Positions 26,984 to 38,782 of a stretch of DNA of 64,000 nt are shown piece by piece; position 1 is the stretch's first letter, and each line of letters begins with the position of its first letter. Under the pieces are notes generated by a model. It saw only the letters and a list, made by a program, of their open reading frames with translations, had not been told where the DNA came from and made no database searches. The stretch covers positions 18,668-82,667 of the forward strand of contig JBFWJC010000007.1 of NCBI GenBank assembly GCA_050253415.1. The letters run 5' to 3'. The position numbers and the translations under genes are program-made. This stretch comes from Pedobacter sp. (GTDB lineage Bacteria > Desulfobacterota > Desulfuromonadia > Desulfuromonadales > Syntrophotaleaceae).

Positions 26984-27011
26984 AAAAAATCGTTTAAAAT
27001 AGAATAACGAT
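26984..27011 (-). terminator. weak candidate terminator after the low-GC cassette
   Basis: On the minus strand ATCGTT-N11-AACGAT is followed by TTTTTT, 12 nt after the stop at 27023. The stem is only 6 bp. Confidence 0.3.
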
Positions 27012-27022
27012 CATATAGATAA

Positions 27023-28132
27023 TTAAATACCCATCAAATCGGTCATTATTTTATTGACGACATTTACATCAAATTTTTTTTCACAGTATTTTCTACTTTC
27101 ATGCCCCATTATTTTGGCTTTTTCAGGATTCTCAATCATCCAACACATTTTCTCGGCTAAAATTTCTGCGTCTTTAGGCGGGACCAAAAATCCATTTATA
27201 TAATTGTTAACAGTTTCCTTACATCCAGGAGTGTCAGTAGTAATAATGGGCCTACCAGTAGCCATGGCTTCTAAAATAGTTCTTGGAACTCCCTCTCCAT
27301 AGAAACTAGGCAAAACATAACATGTACACAAATTATAATATTTGTGAACATTTTGGCTTACACCTTTATATTCAATAGTACCCTGTTTTATATATTTTTC
27401 TAAGTCCTTTTCTTTCATAGCACTAATAGCTTCATCAAAGGGACCTAACAATAAGAATCTTGCTTCAGAAAATTTCCTTTTTACGATTATAGCAGCATCA
27501 ATATATTCTTTTATTCCCTTCGCCCAAATTAACCTGGAAACTAATAAAAAAACGGGGTGTGATGGCATGTCAACTTCTGAAAATTTTTCCAGATTAACAC
27601 CCGATCCATTCACAACCTTACACTTACAATCATTTATAAGTTTCAATCTACTAAACAAGGCAAAATCATCATAATTTTGAAAAAATATGATATTGCATCG
27701 TTTAAAGACAATTTTCATTAGGGGAAATATGATTGTTTTAACGACACTTGATTTCGCACCTCTCATTTGAAATAAAGCCCCCCTACCATTTATAATAGGG
27801 AATATTTTCTTCACCCCGGCAAGGGTCGCAGCCATACTTCCATAAAATGCCATTTTTATTCCATATGTGATAATCAAATCAGGTGATTCACGTTTAAAGT
27901 TATCTTTTAGCTCTAAAATCAATTTTAATTCGGAAAAAGGATTCATGCCAATTCTGTCTAATTTTACTCCAAGGTATCTAACTCCCAGAGAAGCAAAATT
28001 ATTTACACATTCAGTTTCATGCCTTGGTCCAATAAAGACGAGATCGTGCCCTTTGCTTTTAATAAGATCTATCAACTCTTCTCTAGAAACATGCATTCGC
28101 TTGGCACTAACGCTTAATATCGCTATTTTCAC
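27023..28132 (-). CDS. GT4-family glycosyltransferase (PglA/EpsD-like), copy 2, low GC
   Basis: 369 aa, colinear with the 20236..21351 product (for example FFQNYDD vs FFQNHDD, GSGVNLEKF vs GSGVNVKHF, YGEGVPRTILEAMATGRPIITTDTPGC vs GGEGIPRTVLEAMAMGRAVITTNTAGC). Confidence 0.8.
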   Translation of the reverse strand: MKIAILSVSAKRMHVSREELIDLIKSKGHDLVFIGPRHETECVNNFASLGVRYLGVKLDRIGMNPFSELKLILELKDNFKRESPDLIITYGIKMAFYGSMAATLAGVKKIFPIINGRGALFQMRGAKSSVVKTIIFPLMKIVFKRCNIIFFQNYDDFALFSRLKLINDCKCKVVNGSGVNLEKFSEVDMPSHPVFLLVSRLIWAKGIKEYIDAAIIVKRKFSEARFLLLGPFDEAISAMKEKDLEKYIKQGTIEYKGVSQNVHKYYNLCTCYVLPSFYGEGVPRTILEAMATGRPIITTDTPGCKETVNNYINGFLVPPKDAEILAEKMCWMIENPEKAKIMGHESRKYCEKKFDVNVVNKIMTDLMGI

Positions 28133-28712
28133 GATACAAATCCTCTCGCCTGAATACTTTATAAAATGTCAAAAATATAATTTTTACATCAAGCATCATT
28201 GTTAAATTATCAACGTAAAACAGATCATTTTTTTGTCTTTCTTCAATGGTACAATTATTTCTAAAATACACCTGGGTATACCCTGTTACCCCGGGTCTAA
28301 CAGAAAACTTTCTTAAATAATCTTTTGAATATAAGTGTTCGTTTCCTGTTGGACTTGGTCTTGGACCTACAAAACTCATTTCCCCTTTTAGTACATTAAT
28401 AATCTGAGGTATTTCGTCAATACTTGACTCTCTAATATATTTTCCAATCTTTGTGACTCTATGATCGTCTTTGGCATTATATGTACTTCCATCTTTATTT
28501 CGAATATCCTTCGAATTAATTTTCATAGAACGGAATTTATACATTTTAAATTTTTTTTGATTTTTACCAAGACGTTCTCCTGCAAAAATAACACTTCCAC
28601 CATCTTCCAATTTAATGCCAATACCTACTATTAAATACAGGAAAACAAATATTGGTAATAACAATATAGACAGCAAAATATCAAAAAATCTTTTGAGGTA
28701 TTTACTATACAT
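28107..28712 (-). CDS. small bacterial sugar transferase, initiating phosphoglycosyltransferase (PglC type), copy 2, low GC
   Basis: 201 aa. Motifs: KRFFDILLSILLLPIFVFLYLIV, YKFRSM, DEIPQIINVLKGEMSFVGPRP. It overlaps the downstream GT4 gene by 26 nt. Confidence 0.85.
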   Translation of the reverse strand: MYSKYLKRFFDILLSILLLPIFVFLYLIVGIGIKLEDGGSVIFAGERLGKNQKKFKMYKFRSMKINSKDIRNKDGSTYNAKDDHRVTKIGKYIRESSIDEIPQIINVLKGEMSFVGPRPSPTGNEHLYSKDYLRKFSVRPGVTGYTQVYFRNNCTIEERQKNDLFYVDNLTMMLDVKIIFLTFYKVFRREDLYRENSDIKR

Positions 28713-28836
28713 AACAACACCCTAATCGATACTCAACCGTGTAATTAACTAAATACAATTTTTTTAACTCGGAAACAATATTTGTAAATATATGTTAGTG
28801 GTAGACGGCGTCTGGCTATTATCAAAGGATCTTACC

Positions 28837-29952
28837 CTATAATTCTGTGCGAGATTCCAACGCCTTATTATTCCCAAATACTTCTTCAAGGACCTCATCC
28901 GTCAACTCACCAAATAAAGGTCCATTATTAAGCTGATGAATACCTAAATCACCCAATCGGAGATTGGCTTCAATCAAGATAGGCTCTCCATCTTCTCCGA
29001 TGGCGATATCCCACGATATCAGTCTAAAATGGGCCATCTTTTCTTGTTGTTTTTTAACAATTTCTTTTATTTTATCAAATGAAGGAATAATACACTCTGT
29101 AAAATTAAATCCTTGAGGGTGCCTCTCATATTTAATGCCGTACTTAGAGTAAGCAACATCTTTTAACTGTCCACTTTCTTTTATCCCACACGTAATTCCT
29201 CCTACACTAGCATTATCTACCCTACTTCCATTAACGCCCATTCTTAAAATGGATGATAAAATATGGACTTTCCCTTTAAACAATAGTGTTACTATTCTAA
29301 TTGTATTAACTGAGCTTGGATGTATTCGTTTTATTTCACAATGCTGCACTATTATTTTTTGAACAACAAAGTTTTGAAAGTCGGACAAAAGATACTTTTC
29401 TAGTGCTTCCAACCCATCTGTTTCACTCCAAAATTTAATCCCTTTGGCACCTCCTGTTCCAACGGAAGGTTTTATAATCAGACTTTTGTTTTCGTCACAT
29501 AAATCCATGACTTTTTTTACTGATATTATGTTGTAGTTTTTATCATGAAAAAAACCATTAATTTTTCTGACTACAATTGATGGTTGCCTTACGTCATAAA
29601 ACAACAAAGAAAAATAGTTTTTATCCATCATTCCGAAGCTATGTTTTCTATTATTGAAGTGTTGATCAATAATTGTATAATACAAGTCATCTGGCATATA
29701 TCTAGCATCAAAATTATTGTTTCTTGATGAGTAATATTTATGCCAATGAGGTTTGACTTTTTTTGTATATTTACTCCAATACGATAATACTTCTTTTTTA
29801 AAGCTTGGTGATAATGAATCAGTTTTTAAAGAGTAATTATGTTTCAATCTCCAATTATATAATATTTTAATTGCAAGGTTTATGGTACAGATTTCACTTC
29901 TATCAAAAAAACCATATATGAAATTTTTTGCATTATCTTTGAGCTTCATCAC
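28837..29952 (-). CDS. ATP-grasp fold protein of the polysaccharide-associated type
   Basis: 371 aa. Motifs: LIIKPSVGTGGAKGIKFW (phosphate-binding loop), VDNASVGGITCGI, and ISWDIAIGEDGEPILIEANL (Mg/ATP site). It resembles the sugar-transfer-associated / TupA-like ATP-grasp groups. I cannot assign the subfamily by eye. Confidence 0.6.
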   Translation of the reverse strand: MMKLKDNAKNFIYGFFDRSEICTINLAIKILYNWRLKHNYSLKTDSLSPSFKKEVLSYWSKYTKKVKPHWHKYYSSRNNNFDARYMPDDLYYTIIDQHFNNRKHSFGMMDKNYFSLLFYDVRQPSIVVRKINGFFHDKNYNIISVKKVMDLCDENKSLIIKPSVGTGGAKGIKFWSETDGLEALEKYLLSDFQNFVVQKIIVQHCEIKRIHPSSVNTIRIVTLLFKGKVHILSSILRMGVNGSRVDNASVGGITCGIKESGQLKDVAYSKYGIKYERHPQGFNFTECIIPSFDKIKEIVKKQQEKMAHFRLISWDIAIGEDGEPILIEANLRLGDLGIHQLNNGPLFGELTDEVLEEVFGNNKALESRTEL

Positions 29953-30091
29953 TAAACCCTTATCTCAAATGTTCAAATATAATAATTAAAGAACTATACA
30001 TGCAGTTATATAGGAAACATTTTATAAAATGGTCGATTTAATTACTATATTCTTTATTTAAAGCATTTATATAGATGCGGTTGGTTCATAT

Positions 30092-31204
30092 CTAGGTGTT
30101 TTTTGTAATAAAGTATCCTATTTTCTCGAATCTATTATTTATTGGCCTTACAATTTGATCTTCTTTATAATATGTTGAATAACACAATGAATTTTCTGGA
30201 ACCTTATACTTCCCATAGTCCACTTTAGAATTTGGATATGCACATAAAAATTCTAACATGTATCTATCTTTTGATTTTTTGTAGTTTCTTATTTCACTGG
30301 TATTATTATATAGCAAATGTTCAAACAACAACTTTATAATATTTACCCCAGTATAATGCAATAGAACCTTCCACATATGGCAACCATCCAACCGTGGTGT
30401 TACTTCTATAATTATTGGTTTATTTTCTAAAAGTTTTATTTGAAAGTACATAGGACCGTTATAAATATTAAGTTTTTTAGATACACGTTCCACCAACTCA
30501 AGGAGCTCAAATTCAAGTTCCTTGTTTATTATTTTTGATGGAACAATATGTTTGTGAATTAGTCCGCCTTGAAATTGTTGCCAACACACTCTATCTGACG
30601 GAACTAATAATGCTATTTTTCCGTCAATCATATAAACATTAACTGATAATTCAGGGCCGCTTATATATTCCTCAATAATAACAAAACCTGACCTAGAGTA
30701 ATTTTTACTAACCATAAACTTTTCTTTAAAATCAACCTCATTATGTATAAGTTGAACTCCCCTTTGTCCTTGAGAGTCTGCGGGTTTCATAATAAAAGGA
30801 AAGTTAAGGTAAATATCCTCATATTTATTATCCAATACTTGGTAATTTAGATTACCTTTAAAATCTTTTCCAAGGAATGCTCTCATTTCATTTTTGTTGT
30901 TGCATATTCGTGCTGTTTCCCCTGAGACAAAACCAGGTAAATTGATTTTTTCGCTAATTTCTGAATAAATTCTTGTGGCTATATCAGAGCCAACTGAATA
31001 TACACAATCAATTTGATTGTTTTTAATATAGTCAATCACCTTATCAATGTAAGTAAAATCCAATATTTCATAATTATCGGCTTCTTTACTTCCTGGTCCA
31101 TCATCACTCTTTGAGCACGCATAGGTTTCAATACCCATTTCTTTCAATATACGAATCGCGTCTGCTTGAACCTCAGATACACCTAAAATCAAAACTTTTT
31201 TCAT
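30092..31204 (-). CDS. ATP-grasp ligase (carboxylate-amine ligase type)
   Basis: ORF track starts at a TTG at 31207. The ATG at 31204 has the SD AGGGGGA 6 nt upstream. Features: a pre-ATP-grasp Rossmann opening MKKVLILGVSEVQADAI, FIMKPADSQGQRGVQLI, IIEEYISGPELSVNVY, and IIIEVTPRLDG. Confidence 0.8.
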   Translation of the reverse strand: MKKVLILGVSEVQADAIRILKEMGIETYACSKSDDGPGSKEADNYEILDFTYIDKVIDYIKNNQIDCVYSVGSDIATRIYSEISEKINLPGFVSGETARICNNKNEMRAFLGKDFKGNLNYQVLDNKYEDIYLNFPFIMKPADSQGQRGVQLIHNEVDFKEKFMVSKNYSRSGFVIIEEYISGPELSVNVYMIDGKIALLVPSDRVCWQQFQGGLIHKHIVPSKIINKELEFELLELVERVSKKLNIYNGPMYFQIKLLENKPIIIEVTPRLDGCHMWKVLLHYTGVNIIKLLFEHLLYNNTSEIRNYKKSKDRYMLEFLCAYPNSKVDYGKYKVPENSLCYSTYYKEDQIVRPINNRFEKIGYFITKNT

Positions 31205-34687: not shown

Positions 34688-34718
34688 AAAAAAAAGGGAT
34701 CGTCCAAAGGACGACCCC
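34688..34718 (-). terminator. rho-independent terminator of the long lyase gene
   Basis: On the minus strand GGGGTCGTCC-TTT-GGACGATCCC is followed by T8, 44 nt after the stop at 34762. Confidence 0.8.
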
Positions 34719-35997: not shown

Positions 35998-37509
35998 AGC
36001 AGGGAGATAATTTAGGTTAGAGGTTCCCCCTGTGTTAGCGTCAACCGAACTGGAATCGGCATCGTTATCGACGATGGTTACGGTCGAGGTGGTCACGGTA
36101 CCCAAGGCGGTGCCACCCGTAGGGTTCTGCAGCAAAACCGTAAAGGTTTCACTTCCTTCTACTGCCGCATCGTCGGTGATAGCGATGCTGATGGTTTTCT
36201 GGGTCTGGCCGTCGGCAAAATTTACCGTAGTCCAGGAAAAGCTGGTGTAATCCGAGGCATAATCGGCGGTCACGCCCAAGGTACGTACCTCAACGGTCGC
36301 CGCACCGCTACTGCCATCAACTCGCTTTAGCAGCACATCGATTTTACCGGTCCCTTCGTTGACGGAATAATTGGCAGCGCCGAACTCGAAACTTCCCGGG
36401 GTGGTCGAGACGGGTGCTATATCCACGACTACGGCTACAGCCGGAGAAGTGGTTTTGTTGCCGGCCGCATCATAAGCGACCACTGTAAGGTTATGCGTGC
36501 CATTGTCCGTTTCGCTTATGGGTAGACTTGCAGAATAGGTGTTGGTGGTATCGGTGGCGATAAGCTTGCTGCCGTCGTAAAACTCGACCTTGCTGACACC
36601 TACATTGTCGCTGGCCTGAGCCACGATGGTCAACGTCTGGGTGCTGGTTACCGCAAGGTTCCCGGAAGGGCTGATAATGGCCGCGACAGGAGCCGCAGTA
36701 TCGCCTACAACCGCCTCATCGTTGTCAACGATGGTCACCGTCGAGCTGGTCACGGCACCCAGGGCGGTGCCGCCGGTGGGGTTCTGCAACAAAACGGTGA
36801 AGGTTTCACTTCCTTCAACCTCCGTATCGTCGGTGATAGCAATGCTGATGGTTTTCTGGGTCTGGCCGTCGGCAAAATTCACCGTAGTCCAGGAAAAGCT
36901 GTTGTAATCCGAGGTATAATCGGCGGTCACGCCCAAAGTACGTACCTCGACGGTCGCCGCACCAGAAGTTCCACCGACCCGCTGGAGCAAAACGTCGATT
37001 TTGCCAGAACCTTCATTCACGGAATACGCCGAAGCTCCCAGCTGGAAACTGCCGGGTTGCGAATCATTATCCTCAATCGTTATTTCCGAGCTGGTAATAC
37101 TGCCAAGTGTTGTGCCATTGGTCGGTTTGCGCAGAAGGACATTAAAGGTTTCGCTCGATTCCTTGGCCGTATCGTCGGTAATGCCGAGGCTCAGATTCAT
37201 CTGGTTTTGCCCGTTAGCAAATTTGACAGTCGTCCAGGTCATGCTTTCATAATCCGTCTTATAATCGGCAGTATCGCCCAAGGTGCGCACTTGAACTGTG
37301 GCGGCGCCGGAAACGGAACCAGTCCGCTTCAAAAGCACATTAACCTTGCCTCCACCTTCATTGACCGAATATTTGGCGGAACTAAACTCAAAGCTGCCGG
37401 ACGCTGCGGCAACGTTCCCAGGAAGAACCATTTGCATAGTAAGTAACAACACACAAATCAGCCCCCCTATGGATTGTTTCAGATGCGTCATAATAAATGT
37501 TTGTCTCAT
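34762..37509 (-). CDS. secreted Calx-beta x3 / Ig-like / pectate-lyase-like (PL1-type) protein, long paralogue
   Basis: ORF track 34762..37632 was trimmed to the ATG at 37509 (SD AGGGAG; MRQTFIMTHLKQSIGGLICVLLLTMQMVLPGNVAAASG is a signal peptide). Three ~112-aa Calx-beta modules follow (F-x-x-x-x-YSVNEG-G-K..., TV-V-RTLG-TADY, ITDD...E-SETF). An Ig-like module sits between modules 2 and 3. The C-terminal 412 aa are homologous to the short paralogue: near-identical over most of the domain and about 87% identical in the last ~115 aa. Confidence 0.8.
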   Translation of the reverse strand: MRQTFIMTHLKQSIGGLICVLLLTMQMVLPGNVAAASGSFEFSSAKYSVNEGGGKVNVLLKRTGSVSGAATVQVRTLGDTADYKTDYESMTWTTVKFANGQNQMNLSLGITDDTAKESSETFNVLLRKPTNGTTLGSITSSEITIEDNDSQPGSFQLGASAYSVNEGSGKIDVLLQRVGGTSGAATVEVRTLGVTADYTSDYNSFSWTTVNFADGQTQKTISIAITDDTEVEGSETFTVLLQNPTGGTALGAVTSSTVTIVDNDEAVVGDTAAPVAAIISPSGNLAVTSTQTLTIVAQASDNVGVSKVEFYDGSKLIATDTTNTYSASLPISETDNGTHNLTVVAYDAAGNKTTSPAVAVVVDIAPVSTTPGSFEFGAANYSVNEGTGKIDVLLKRVDGSSGAATVEVRTLGVTADYASDYTSFSWTTVNFADGQTQKTISIAITDDAAVEGSETFTVLLQNPTGGTALGTVTTSTVTIVDNDADSSSVDANTGGTSNLNYLPAFPGAEGFGTETAGGRGGQIIKVTNLNDSGTGSLRAAVQASGSRIVVFEVSGIINLQSELIITNPYITIAGQTAPAPGIMLKNRRLKISAHDVLIQHIRVRPGDERSYNTSEEGERDCLGIVGHSDIYNVVVDHCSFQWAVDEVIGLWGYKDSRLDNITISNCIVSEGLDNSIHPEGAHSKGFLIGDYAKKITVLRNLISSSDDRNGPNAKGGTTSVVINNYVYNGGRSGRMHYSDSYNAGTLFQSTIGNVFRDGPEYATKAPLWWADNTKVGSQVYTSDNLILRLDESGASVPLMDPPSWGNPQVMTPPVPYDNITILPTSSVKSYVLQHSGARPGERGTSNGDRLDERVINDVWNGSGAMIDTPVQGGGWPTYAKNTRQFVVPSNPNGDDDGDGYTNIEEVLHQMAAAVE
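36061..36399. repeat. Calx-beta module 3 coding repeat
   Basis: About 90% identical at DNA level to 36718..37056 (offset 657 nt). The protein segments PGSFEFGAANYSVNEGTGKIDVLLKRVDG... and PGSFQLGASAYSVNEGSGKIDVLLQRVGG... correspond. Confidence 0.85.
36718..37056. repeat. Calx-beta module 2 coding repeat
   Basis: This is the partner of 36061..36399. Confidence 0.85.
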
Positions 37510-37585
37510 AAACTCCCTCTTTGTTGGTGTGATCTGGCACCGGTTTTTCCGATGCCACCAAATCTTGTTTGCGCCTTGGAGGCGC

Positions 37586-37627
37586 AAAAAAAAAAGCGCT
37601 GCTCTTGGAGATCCCAAAGCAAAGCGC
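37586..37627 (-). terminator. intrinsic terminator inside the 5' leader (probable riboswitch expression platform)
   Basis: On the minus strand GCGCUUUGCUUUGG-GAUCU-CCAAGAGCAGCGC (about 12 bp with small bulges) is followed by U10. It lies 44 nt downstream of the aptamer and 77 nt upstream of the ATG at 37509. Confidence 0.7.
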
Positions 37628-37671
37628 CGCACATGTACCTACTAACCTCGAGGTGCTTCCAGGTTTTGAGG

Positions 37672-37767
37672 ATTTTCGGCAACCCGGCTATCCACCTTAT
37701 TTTTTGACGTCGGTGGACCCGTAGCTTTGCGTGGCCAGATCTCTCTGACTTTGCCCTGAACGAAAAC
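37672..37767 (-). promoter_or_regulatory. GEMM-I (c-di-GMP-I class) riboswitch aptamer
   Basis: Minus-strand RNA: GUUUUCG-UUC-AGGGCAAAG-UCAGA-GAGA-UCUGG-CC-ACGCAAAGC-UACGGGUCCACC-GACGUCAAAAAAUAA-GGUGGAUAGCCGGGUUGC-CGAAAAU. It has a closing P1 helix (GUUUUCG/CGAAAAU), the CAGGGCAAA junction, a GNRA-capped hairpin, the ACGCAAAGC junction, a second hairpin (CCACC/GGUGG) and a GGGUUNCCGA 3' strand. All are colinear with the V. cholerae Vc2 aptamer as I remember it. Confidence 0.8.
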
Positions 37768-38603
37768 TTTTCCCCTAGACCATGACCATCGGCATACCCT
37801 CCTACCCCGTAGTGGTTACATTGCCCATAGTAACGATCCGTCGAATTGTGACGGCTATCACAATGGGTGCGTCAGTCGTTCTGCGGGACATGTAAGAGCA
37901 AGCCACATGCCAAGTTTTCTTTTATAATTCGGCAACTTAAAAGACCTACATATACGCTTTATGATAATGAAAAAACTGTCGTTAAATTAACTTTGGCACA
38001 TGATTTATATTCAACGAAATCTAGAAAATGGACAAAAATATACTTTGAAAAAGTTAAGTCATGTCGGGATGTTACTAATTGTAACCATCCGTAAAGGGGA
38101 TAACAGTTAACTTTATGAGAAATTTTGGGGATACAAATGTCGAGAAAAGACGGTTTTGAATTTCAATAATTTGCTTGACCAAGCGTGAGTTTTCACCAAT
38201 TCAATGAGAAAACGTGACGTACTCGCTACATATGTCTTTTGGCATCAACACGTTGCCCTGTCACTTTACGGCGACAACAGCAGAATTCATTCAATCTGGC
38301 ATGCATCCATCTCTACATACGTGATTTCAATAAGTTGCGGTACTACTGAAAAATTCAATAGTCATTGCGGTGACAAAATTACCCCCGATATGGAATTTGT
38401 CGCCATAACATGACGCACCTACCATACACAGCTGAATTCCTCGTTGTCGGGATCGCGAAGATATAAAAATAGCACCGAACGCATACCGGTTTTCTCTATA
38501 TCCCCGACTGGATCAATGTAATTTCAATTAGTTGGGTATGACTATCATGGATATCGAATAAATTCGAAAGTATGCGATTTTTCCGTTCTCGGCGGATGTA
38601 TCA

Positions 38604-38640
38604 ACAAAAAATGGCTGACCGGTTTATCCGGTCAGCCATT
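38604..38640 (-). terminator. rho-independent terminator of the apgM-family gene / housekeeping operon
   Basis: A perfect 13-bp stem AATGGCTGACCGG / CCGGTCAGCCATT with a 5-nt loop. On the minus strand it is followed by TTTTTTG. It lies 143 nt after the stop at 38783. Confidence 0.85.
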
Positions 38641-38782
38641 TGGCGTCATATTCCTGTTTTAAAAAAAAGCTTTTCTGTATGTGTGGTTAGACTGTGTTCC
38701 TTACCCGAGTCGTTAAAATTATTTCCAGGATCTACTTTTCGTTGCCTCGCCATCACCTGTTCCGCAATGGCAAGGTACCATG

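Follow-up and report, generated by a model that had tools for sequence, protein, structure and literature searches.

Which signal is read by the RNA that precedes a large lyase-like gene at the head of an exopolysaccharide (EPS) locus, and does this signal switch the gene on or off? The question is raised by a stretch of 64,000 nucleotides (nt) from contig JBFWJC010000007.1 (GenBank assembly GCA_050253415.1, positions 18,668 to 82,667), here called the window, in which the minus strand encodes a 915-residue protein composed of Calx-beta sequence and a domain related to polysaccharide lyases of family PL1. The explanation that accounts best for the data, to which we assign a probability of about 0.65, is that the leader of this gene carries a riboswitch of class I for cyclic di-guanosine monophosphate (c-di-GMP) acting as an OFF switch.

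The aptamer and its terminator platform

The whole window was scanned with Rfam 15 at the gathering thresholds. At these thresholds cmscan returned a single match in the 64 kb, to RF01051 (c-di-GMP-I; 37675-37765, minus strand, 60.6 bits compared to a gathering threshold of 35, E 2.3e-9), which spans model positions 1-87 of 87. The P1 helix was added by folding and comprises 7 bp formed by GUUUUCG (37767-37761) and CGAAAAU (37678-37672). Folding of the aptamer alone recovers the Rfam architecture, with the GNRA tetraloop GAGA on P2. The alignment to the model places a G before the GC pair of GGCAAA (G20 in the Vibrio cholerae Vc2 RNA), an A after ACGC (Vc2 A47, the sequence reading ACGC-A-AAGC), which intercalates in the Vc2 structures, and a C before the P1 3' strand (Vc2 C92). 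Next to these three positions and the full-length match to RF01051, the window RNA shares with Vc2 the P1 helix, the GNRA-capped P2, P3 and the GGCAAA and ACGCAAAGC junctions. It differs from Vc2 in its P2 loop, which is GAGA and not GAAA, and in P3, where the 11-nt tetraloop-receptor segment is missing, visible as gaps at CUAA and uAu in the RF01051 alignment. The combination of a GAAA tetraloop with an 11-nt receptor in P3, which defines the GEMM type 1 subtype, is absent from the window aptamer. The tetraloop-receptor motif in P3 is not needed for the GEMM family as a whole, as set out in the original description of GEMM.

The aptamer is located in the 5' leader on the same strand as the gene, its end 162 nt before the ATG at 37509, and a terminator lies in between. 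This terminator hairpin follows 44 nt after P1. Its 12 pairs are interrupted by a single bulge and a single mismatch: from the base upward, GCGCU/AGCGC is followed by the UU bulge, then by GCUUU/AGAGC, the G.A mismatch and GG/CC below the loop AUCU; with the U10 tract directly 3' of the stem it has the make-up of an intrinsic terminator. Its energy was calculated as -13.4 kcal/mol in a 45-nt context and as -18.3 kcal/mol in a 53-nt fold. The hairpin was absent from the output of a simple consensus terminator scanner, which we think is due to the bulge and the mismatch. The linker between P1 and the terminator contains a small hairpin (AACCU, 37665-37661, with AGGUU, 37648-37644) and is complementary to the 3' strand of the aptamer (CCGGGUU:AACCUGG). 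An earlier description of this DNA, made from its letters and here referred to as the sequence-only reading, had quoted the minus-strand sequence from 37767 to 37672, assigned it to GEMM-I, proposed a search with RF01051 and named as elements shared with Vc2 the closing helix, a GNRA-capped hairpin, a second hairpin and the junctions. The quoted sequence is present at these positions, the score is well over the gathering threshold, and P1, P2, P3 and the junctions are seen in the match or the fold. The hairpin of about 12 bp with U10 (37627-37586), placed by the same reading 44 nt past the aptamer, was likewise recovered.

The conservation of the aptamer was analyzed in homologous loci, i.e., contigs, mainly from metagenomes, that encode homologues of the 915-residue protein. 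These were scanned with Rfam. Of the eleven homologous loci that extend far enough upstream, ten carry a GEMM-I aptamer. Aptamers of this type were found before the homologous gene in L081, L082, L083, L084, L086, L087, L088, L089, L091, L092 and L093; the sole locus for which the scan gave none, L090, encodes a truncated homologue in another context. A scan of genome contigs combined with protein alignment was set aside, as it resulted in distant lyase-domain relatives only (at most 49% identity), none with the full architecture, and yielded no leaders of use.

Covariation was counted for 21 canonical pairs, i.e., those of P2, P3 and the junction pairs G21-C46 and C22-G45, across 11 distinct related aptamers. 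In the canonical structure 98.7% of the cells are paired, and changes on both sides are found in 9 of the 21 pairs. Four of five covariation measures were matched by none of 500 column shuffles and the fifth, the number of further pair types, by 8 of 500, and sliding of the 3' partners by one to three columns reduces the pairing to 20-42%. The consensus calculated by RNAalifold was not used, as it replaced the canonical junction pairs by a pairing of GGC (columns 18-20) with GCC (columns 94-96); the canonical structure was counted explicitly instead. The P2 loop is of the GNRA type in all 11 aptamers (GUAA, GUGA or GCAA in the homologues), and a CG:CG-anchored P1 can be drawn in the homologues if the two CG:CG pairs are enforced, although it comprises just 2 bp in L091. 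As GEMM-I aptamers are present before the homologous genes and the covariation stands out from both the shuffled and the slid controls, sequence comparison argues that the aptamer is real, conserved and under structural selection. That the match is a chance or a decaying GEMM-like sequence without function is very improbable: its score lies 25 bits over the gathering threshold, P2 and P3 are kept by compensatory changes, all ligand contacts are intact and the aptamer recurs before the orthologous gene in the homologous loci. Its identity as a class I c-di-GMP riboswitch (GEMM-I, RF01051) is hardly in doubt. The RNA is a member of a well-known class of RNA switches, and what is known about the mechanism of such riboswitches is unchanged by it.

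Ligand and direction of the switch

The distinction between c-di-GMP and 3'3'-cyclic GMP-AMP (cGAMP) matters because the host falls into the Desulfuromonadales, an order in which cGAMP-type variants of GEMM-I are common (PMC8835794). The window aptamer carries the canonical c-di-GMP contact set G20/A47/C92. For Vc2 it was shown that G20 reads G-alpha and that C92 pairs with G-beta, that cGAMP-type relatives have an A in place of G20, and that the wild-type G20 RNA binds cGAMP at ~10 uM compared to picomolar c-di-GMP (PMC6140456). Following this rule, the contact set of the window aptamer leads to the expectation that c-di-GMP is bound, and as judged from these residues c-di-GMP is very probably the ligand. 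The G at the G20 position and the preference for c-di-GMP over 3'3'-cGAMP were already part of the sequence-only reading; A47 and C92 turned out to be canonical as well. A sensing of 3'3'-cGAMP, or of both dinucleotides, as in many GEMM-I RNAs of the Desulfuromonadales, is improbable. It would fit the taxonomic position of the host, and in the homologous leader L093 one aptamer of the A20 type stands in a tandem array with two of the G20 type. However, position 20 is a G in the window and in 10 of the 11 related aptamers, so that the A marking GEMM-Ib and 3'3'-cGAMP binders is not found here, and for the G20 form of Vc2 a discrimination against cGAMP of many orders of magnitude is reported (PMC6140456).

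A further comparison concerns the family c-di-GMP-I-GGC (RF03167), which resembles the window RNA in its compact P3 and in the register of P1. The window RNA reaches 56.7 bits with this model, under its gathering score of 59, and several of the homologous leaders score slightly better with RF03167 than with RF01051. A change of the ligand class in the homologues was considered and ruled out, as RF03167 has a G after ACGC, whereas the window and all homologues have an A. Hence it is the compact P3 and the overall shape, rather than the diagnostic base, to which the RF03167 assignments are due.

The direction of the switch was approached by folding of the transcript from P1 to the terminator. 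In the unconstrained minimum free energy (MFE) structure the terminator is not formed. Instead UUCAGGGCAAAGU, which overlaps the ligand-binding junction including G20, is paired with GCUUUGCUUUGGG in the 5' arm of the terminator, and shorter helices connect 37735-37721 to 37642-37626. If the aptamer is enforced, the linker folds into a small hairpin by itself and the terminator is formed; the ensemble probability of its basal pairs GCGCU:AGCGC is 0.11 in the free RNA compared to 0.87-0.97 with the aptamer locked. In transcripts ending at 37612-37607, which contain the 5' arm only, the antiterminator is 13.9 kcal/mol better than the best fold keeping the aptamer, a preference matched by 4 of 300 dinucleotide shuffles of the terminator arm; with the 3' arm present, the advantage is 3.8 kcal/mol. 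In the near-identical leader of L082 the free MFE structure pairs GCAAAGC with GCUUUGC and GAGAUC with GAUCUC, and judged by these folds both antiterminators, the UUCAGGGCAAAGU junction strand and GCAAAGC, are predicted to be available. No terminator stem overlaps the P1 3' strand in the manner typical of ON designs. OFF, i.e., ligand-promoted termination, is the direction that these model folds support best, and it is favored here with some reserve. The sequence-only reading had proposed GCAAAGC:GCUUUGC as antiterminator and, from it, an OFF signal. Of these, the pairing is seen in the free MFE structure of L082, but the window favors UUCAGGGCAAAGU and GCUUUGCUUUGGG; the OFF direction agrees with the folds with and without aptamer constraint, the agreement being one of computed thermodynamics.

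From these results a mechanism can be proposed. Transcription would probably start some 120 nt before the aptamer, at a promoter of the sigma-54 type. The aptamer, in which the pocket residues G20, A47 and C92 are seen, would bind c-di-GMP, and binding would lock P1 and the junction containing CAGGGCAAAG, so that the hairpin and the U10 tract could stop transcription before the gene is reached. At low c-di-GMP the junction strand at 37760-37748, or alternatively GCAAAGC (37730-37724), would pair with the 5' arm of the terminator, and with the antiterminator formed RNA polymerase would read into the lyase gene. With a terminator directly past this gene, the switch would most likely gate the lyase alone. 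An enzyme cutting the cell's own exopolysaccharide might thereby be made at low c-di-GMP, in dispersal or remodelling, and be repressed in the matrix-building state.

Several results weigh against this mechanism. The energy of the best duplex between the terminator arm and the aptamer is ordinary, with 537 of 2000 and 293 of 2000 shuffles being as good, and a low terminator probability in the free state is also obtained for 72 of 300 shuffles of the aptamer; two of the three shuffle controls of the antiterminator are therefore not significant. The predicted antiterminator strands are invariant in the close relatives and hence show no compensatory changes. Self-contained terminators 55-80 nt past the aptamer recur, in favor of the proposed platform, in L083, L086, L091, L093b and L093c; in truncated transcripts of these independent lineages the 5' arm pairs with the region of the P1 3' strand or, for L093c, with an extended part of the aptamer. 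The arm-shuffle test is, however, not significant in these lineages (combined p 0.11), and for L086, L091 and L093b folding at equilibrium predicts the terminator whether or not the aptamer is locked. A generalization of the OFF design to the independent lineages was given up: terminators do occur in them, but their switch statistics do not reach significance. Furthermore, the evidence for the sigma-54-type box consists of a pattern match and conservation, and that for an action of the lyase on the cell's own EPS consists of the position of the gene in the locus. Finally, the characterized switches of the GEMM-I type in the related genus Geobacter (cGAMP class) behave as ON switches, and the transcripts under their control drop 2- to 16-fold on deletion of the cyclase GacA (PMC8835794).

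The same riboswitch might instead be an ON switch, with c-di-GMP preventing termination. Lyase and matrix would then be produced at the same time, the enzyme being, for instance, required to process EPS for export in the manner of AlgL or PelA; we regard this reading as unlikely. Many EPS operons hold a lyase or hydrolase that is needed for synthesis, and the two shuffle controls without support for a designed antiterminator speak for this direction as well. So do the ligand-dependent increase of transcripts by the related GEMM-Ib switches of Geobacter (PMC8835794) and the class I RNA Bc2 of Bacillus thuringiensis, which is an ON switch (PMC6366702). It is opposed by the folds: the terminator is predicted at 0.87-0.97 with the aptamer locked, and the linker provides no competitor; the terminator is self-contained at 44 nt from P1 and does not share the P1 3' strand; the free-state MFE structure breaks the terminator and not the reverse; and only 4 of 300 arm shuffles reach the observed preference. 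A still less probable explanation is that binding of c-di-GMP acts mainly via Rho, RNA stability or translation, the latter by the two downstream hairpins and a pairing of the U-tract with the Shine-Dalgarno (SD) region, and that the hairpin with U10 is a constitutive attenuator. The class I switches of V. cholerae indeed do not use termination (PMC6366702), two conserved hairpins lie between terminator and SD, and in the full-leader MFE structure CUUUUU (37596-37591) pairs with AAAGAG beside the SD. On the other hand 150 nt separate the SD from the aptamer, to which it is not directly complementary, the arrangement of aptamer and terminator recurs in independent lineages, and linker and terminator equal the aptamer in their conservation, all of which speaks against this explanation.

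For c-di-GMP-dependent termination there is an established precedent in the class I OFF switches of Clostridioides difficile (PMC6366702). The switches Cd1 on flgB and zmpI/PPEP-1 share with the window a class I aptamer followed by a terminator, and there the ligand causes premature termination. The zmpI switch controls a protease that releases c-di-GMP-induced adhesins, so that the logic of repressing an enzyme that removes surface or matrix components at high c-di-GMP would be the same (PMC6366702). By this analogy zmpI appears to be the closest functional counterpart. The systems differ in that C. difficile belongs to the Firmicutes and not to the Desulfuromonadales, in the enzyme, which is a protease acting on adhesins in the one case and a polysaccharide lyase in the other, and in that OFF behavior was demonstrated in C. 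difficile and is predicted for the window. Compared to V. cholerae, where the class I switches do not act via termination, the platform in the window is an intrinsic terminator (PMC6366702). The Geobacter GEMM-Ib RNAs Gs1761 and Gm0970 share with it the fold and the taxonomic order, and they are likewise transcriptional switches with long leaders on genes with extracellular functions (PMC8835794, PMC6140456); they have an A at the G20 equivalent and are ON switches, whereas the window RNA has G20 and a platform predicted to be OFF.

The regulated gene and the organization of its leader

The 915-residue product contains three Calx-beta domains (7e-57, in three stretches) and a Big_7 domain according to Pfam, and its N-terminus is hydrophobic and ends with AAA-S, which was read by eye as a signal peptide. 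The product is predicted to be secreted or surface-displayed. Its C-terminal 420 residues gave no Pfam match. Directly downstream a stand-alone paralogue of this domain is encoded, which is 96% identical over 420 residues and matches the solved pectate lyase structure 9buj_A (E 5.2e-29, residues 39-322) and, weakly, VexL (6fi2, E 5e-4). Because a paralogue of 96% identity matches 9buj_A, the C-terminal domain of the regulated protein is taken as a PL1-like polysaccharide lyase domain. The sequence-only reading had described a Calx-beta/pectate-lyase-like gene with a near-identical paralogue without such a leader downstream of it; the Calx-beta part follows from Pfam, the relation to pectate lyase from 9buj_A, and a second RF01051 match before the paralogue is absent. 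Sigma-70-like sites were found in front of the paralogue (34655-34620).

A strong intrinsic terminator directly follows the regulated gene. Its stem (34718-34696) has 10 pairs, 7 of them G-C, and is followed by T8, and an equivalent terminator is present after the orthologue in L082 (5807-5842). Because of this terminator, the regulated unit is probably monocistronic and the switch probably gates the lyase alone and not the 30-kb EPS locus. The riboswitch does lie at the head of the EPS locus, as the sequence-only reading has it, but most probably controls just the first gene.

Upstream of the aptamer a sigma-54-type promoter-like box, TGGCATGTGGCTTGCT, was found (Table 1). It has the GG at -24, the GC at -12 and the exact spacing of the consensus TGGCAC-N5-TTGCW, and it is the sole match to TGGCAYN5TTGCW in the 64 kb, with 0.17 matches expected by chance. 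The box is kept in L082 (15 of 16 positions) and in L084 (16 of 16), and the identity to these two loci rises from ~71% upstream of the box to 88-100% between the box and the start codon. A sigma-70-like site was not found on the minus strand within 37300-38300. The box is the likely promoter of the leader, as judged from pattern and conservation, with a predicted transcription start near 37886. Both lie upstream of the aptamer and not downstream of 37672, which is compatible with the sequence-only reading.

The segment between box and aptamer is 88-90% identical to L082 and L084. It contains a hairpin formed by AUUGUGAU (37864-37857) and GUCACAAU (37852-37845), and GAACGA (37881-37876) is able to pair with UCGUUC (37763-37758) of the P1 5' strand. 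No credible second RNA element turned up with Rfam at E<=5, either in this 5' portion of the leader or across the intergenic region of 1 kb. The DNA of aptamer, linker and terminator is 90-95% identical in the close relatives, and the linker, with 93-95% identity in L081, L082 and L084, is as conserved as the aptamer. Past the terminator, two further hairpins and an SD precede the ATG at 37509, all of which had been noted in the sequence-only reading. In the first hairpin the stem is kept and the loop varies in L081, L082 and L084; the second has an energy of -16.1 kcal/mol in a 56-nt context (z -2.4). The SD is invariant in these three loci. The pairing in the full-leader MFE structure between the start of the U-tract and AAAGAG, which is located at 37522-37517, might couple read-through to translation, or may be due to chance.

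Table 1. Features of the regulated gene, its leader and the adjacent paralogue, listed in the direction of transcription (positions in the window).
Feature	Position	Strand	Basis and remarks
Sigma-54-type promoter-like box, TGGCAT-N5-TTGCT (-24/-12), TGGCATGTGGCTTGCT	37897..37912	minus	pattern match and conservation
Conserved 5' leader segment from promoter-like box to aptamer, 129 nt	37768..37896	minus	conservation
c-di-GMP-I (GEMM-I) aptamer including P1	37672..37767	minus	RF01051 score, fold, covariation, contact positions
Predicted antiterminator 5' strand, UUCAGGGCAAAGU	37748..37760	minus	unconstrained MFE; overlaps the ligand-binding junction including G20
Linker, 44 nt	37628..37671	minus	folding; conservation
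Stem-loop of the intrinsic terminator of the platform	37596..37627	minus	folding
Predicted antiterminator 3' strand, GCUUUGCUUUGGG, in the terminator 5' arm	37613..37625	minus	unconstrained MFE
U10 tract of the terminator	37586..37595	minus	read from sequence
Hairpin UUUGCGCCU/AGGCGCAAA	37568..37588	minus	folding; overlaps the end of the U-tract
Hairpin UGGCAUCGG/CCGGUGCCA	37535..37557	minus	folding
Shine-Dalgarno GAGGGAG	37513..37519	minus	read from sequence
Regulated gene, 915 aa	34762..37509	minus	Pfam; structure match via the paralogue
Strong intrinsic terminator directly past the regulated gene	34688..34718	minus	10-bp stem, T8
Stand-alone lyase-domain paralogue, 450 aa	33223..34575	minus	96% identity over 420 aa

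Homologous loci and the surrounding exopolysaccharide locus

The comparison of the homologous loci gives an indication of how the leader and the gene evolve. In the close relative L082 the flanking apgM is 95% identical to that of the window, whereas the lyase protein is just 58-60% identical. Because apgM and the DNA of the leader are conserved to this extent while the lyase protein is not, the leader seems to behave as a piece of core genome bordering on a variable locus. In L092 (NCBI GCA_002452265.1, 2246-6752) the same riboswitch leader is present and the N-terminal 483 residues are 72% identical to the window protein; this N-terminal module is, however, fused to an unrelated Pel9A-like beta-helix domain and not to a PL1-like domain. 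Moreover, a stand-alone paralogue of the respective fused catalytic domain is encoded directly downstream in the window (96% identity), in L092 (82%) and in L082 (50%). This suggests a conserved module for control and display with an exchangeable catalytic domain that is matched to the local polysaccharide. Going further, the riboswitch could be the conserved control head of a modular "self-depolymerase", in which the OFF leader and the display module of signal peptide, Calx-beta and Big_7 are kept and the C-terminal domain is swapped according to the EPS of the strain and copied from or to the downstream paralogue, as in the window, L092 and L082; this is a tentative idea, which we consider possible but doubtful. 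If it were true, low c-di-GMP would lead to strain-specific digestion of the matrix and to dispersal, with an additional control by sigma-54.

Among the homologous leaders, L093 (1524-2259; ENA ERZ25039549 contig_40681) is organized differently. Three tandem GEMM-I aptamers precede an 807-residue Calx-beta gene, and each is followed by a terminator-like hairpin, giving three complete aptamer-terminator units. The first aptamer has an A at the G20 position, as in the cGAMP type, and the other two have a G, so that L093 is, as far as the sequence tells, a possible mixed tandem for two messengers. The Bc3-5 RNA of B. thuringiensis consists of triple tandem c-di-GMP-I riboswitches (PMC4759541); L093 likewise has three units in series, whereas the window has a single one. 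A description of a mixed tandem with a first unit of the A20 type was not found in the literature searched.

With the window RNA a well-supported c-di-GMP-I riboswitch is added to an uncultured lineage of the Desulfuromonadales, and the class is linked to a type of gene for a displayed polysaccharide lyase encoded at an EPS locus. In the literature searched no paper was found that combines c-di-GMP riboswitches with polysaccharide lyases or GEMM RNAs with Calx-beta proteins, which is weak evidence of novelty and concerns the gene association only. If the OFF direction is true, the leader would connect a fall in c-di-GMP to degradation of the matrix directly and without a protein in between, in parallel to zmpI of C. 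difficile. Placed before a variable polysaccharide locus, the conserved leader might also serve as a convenient c-di-GMP reporter module for these electroactive, biofilm-forming bacteria.

The remainder of the EPS locus, on the minus strand down to ~6714, encodes a pathway of the Wzx/Wzy type. Its genes comprise a putative polymerase-like membrane protein, ATP-grasp enzymes, sugar transferases, GT4 glycosyltransferases, a flippase and aminotransferases, and furthermore a CapD-like enzyme, a beta-barrel porin, a Wza-like exporter and a Wzc-like kinase. Within the locus the G+C content is ~0.30 at 27000-31000 compared to 0.45-0.55 around it. The genes for the ATP-grasp enzymes, sugar transferases and GT4 enzymes lie in this block, which has the appearance of a cassette obtained by horizontal transfer.

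On the other side of the leader, a perfect palindrome of 33 nt (38609-38641), which aligns with its own reverse, is located downstream of apgM. L082 and L084 share it, and it probably serves as terminator of apgM. The protein encoded by apgM in the window shares 95% identity with metagenome sequences and 67-69% with proteins of named Syntrophotalea and Desulfuromonas, and by such similarity the host is assigned to an uncultured bacterium of the Desulfuromonadales. Finally, riboswitches of other classes were observed in neighbouring leaders of two homologous loci: a thiamine pyrophosphate (TPP) riboswitch precedes thiS/thiG in L086 (2191-2295, minus strand), and an S-adenosylmethionine (SAM) riboswitch precedes a gene of cysteine/methionine metabolism in L090 (4698-4825, plus strand).

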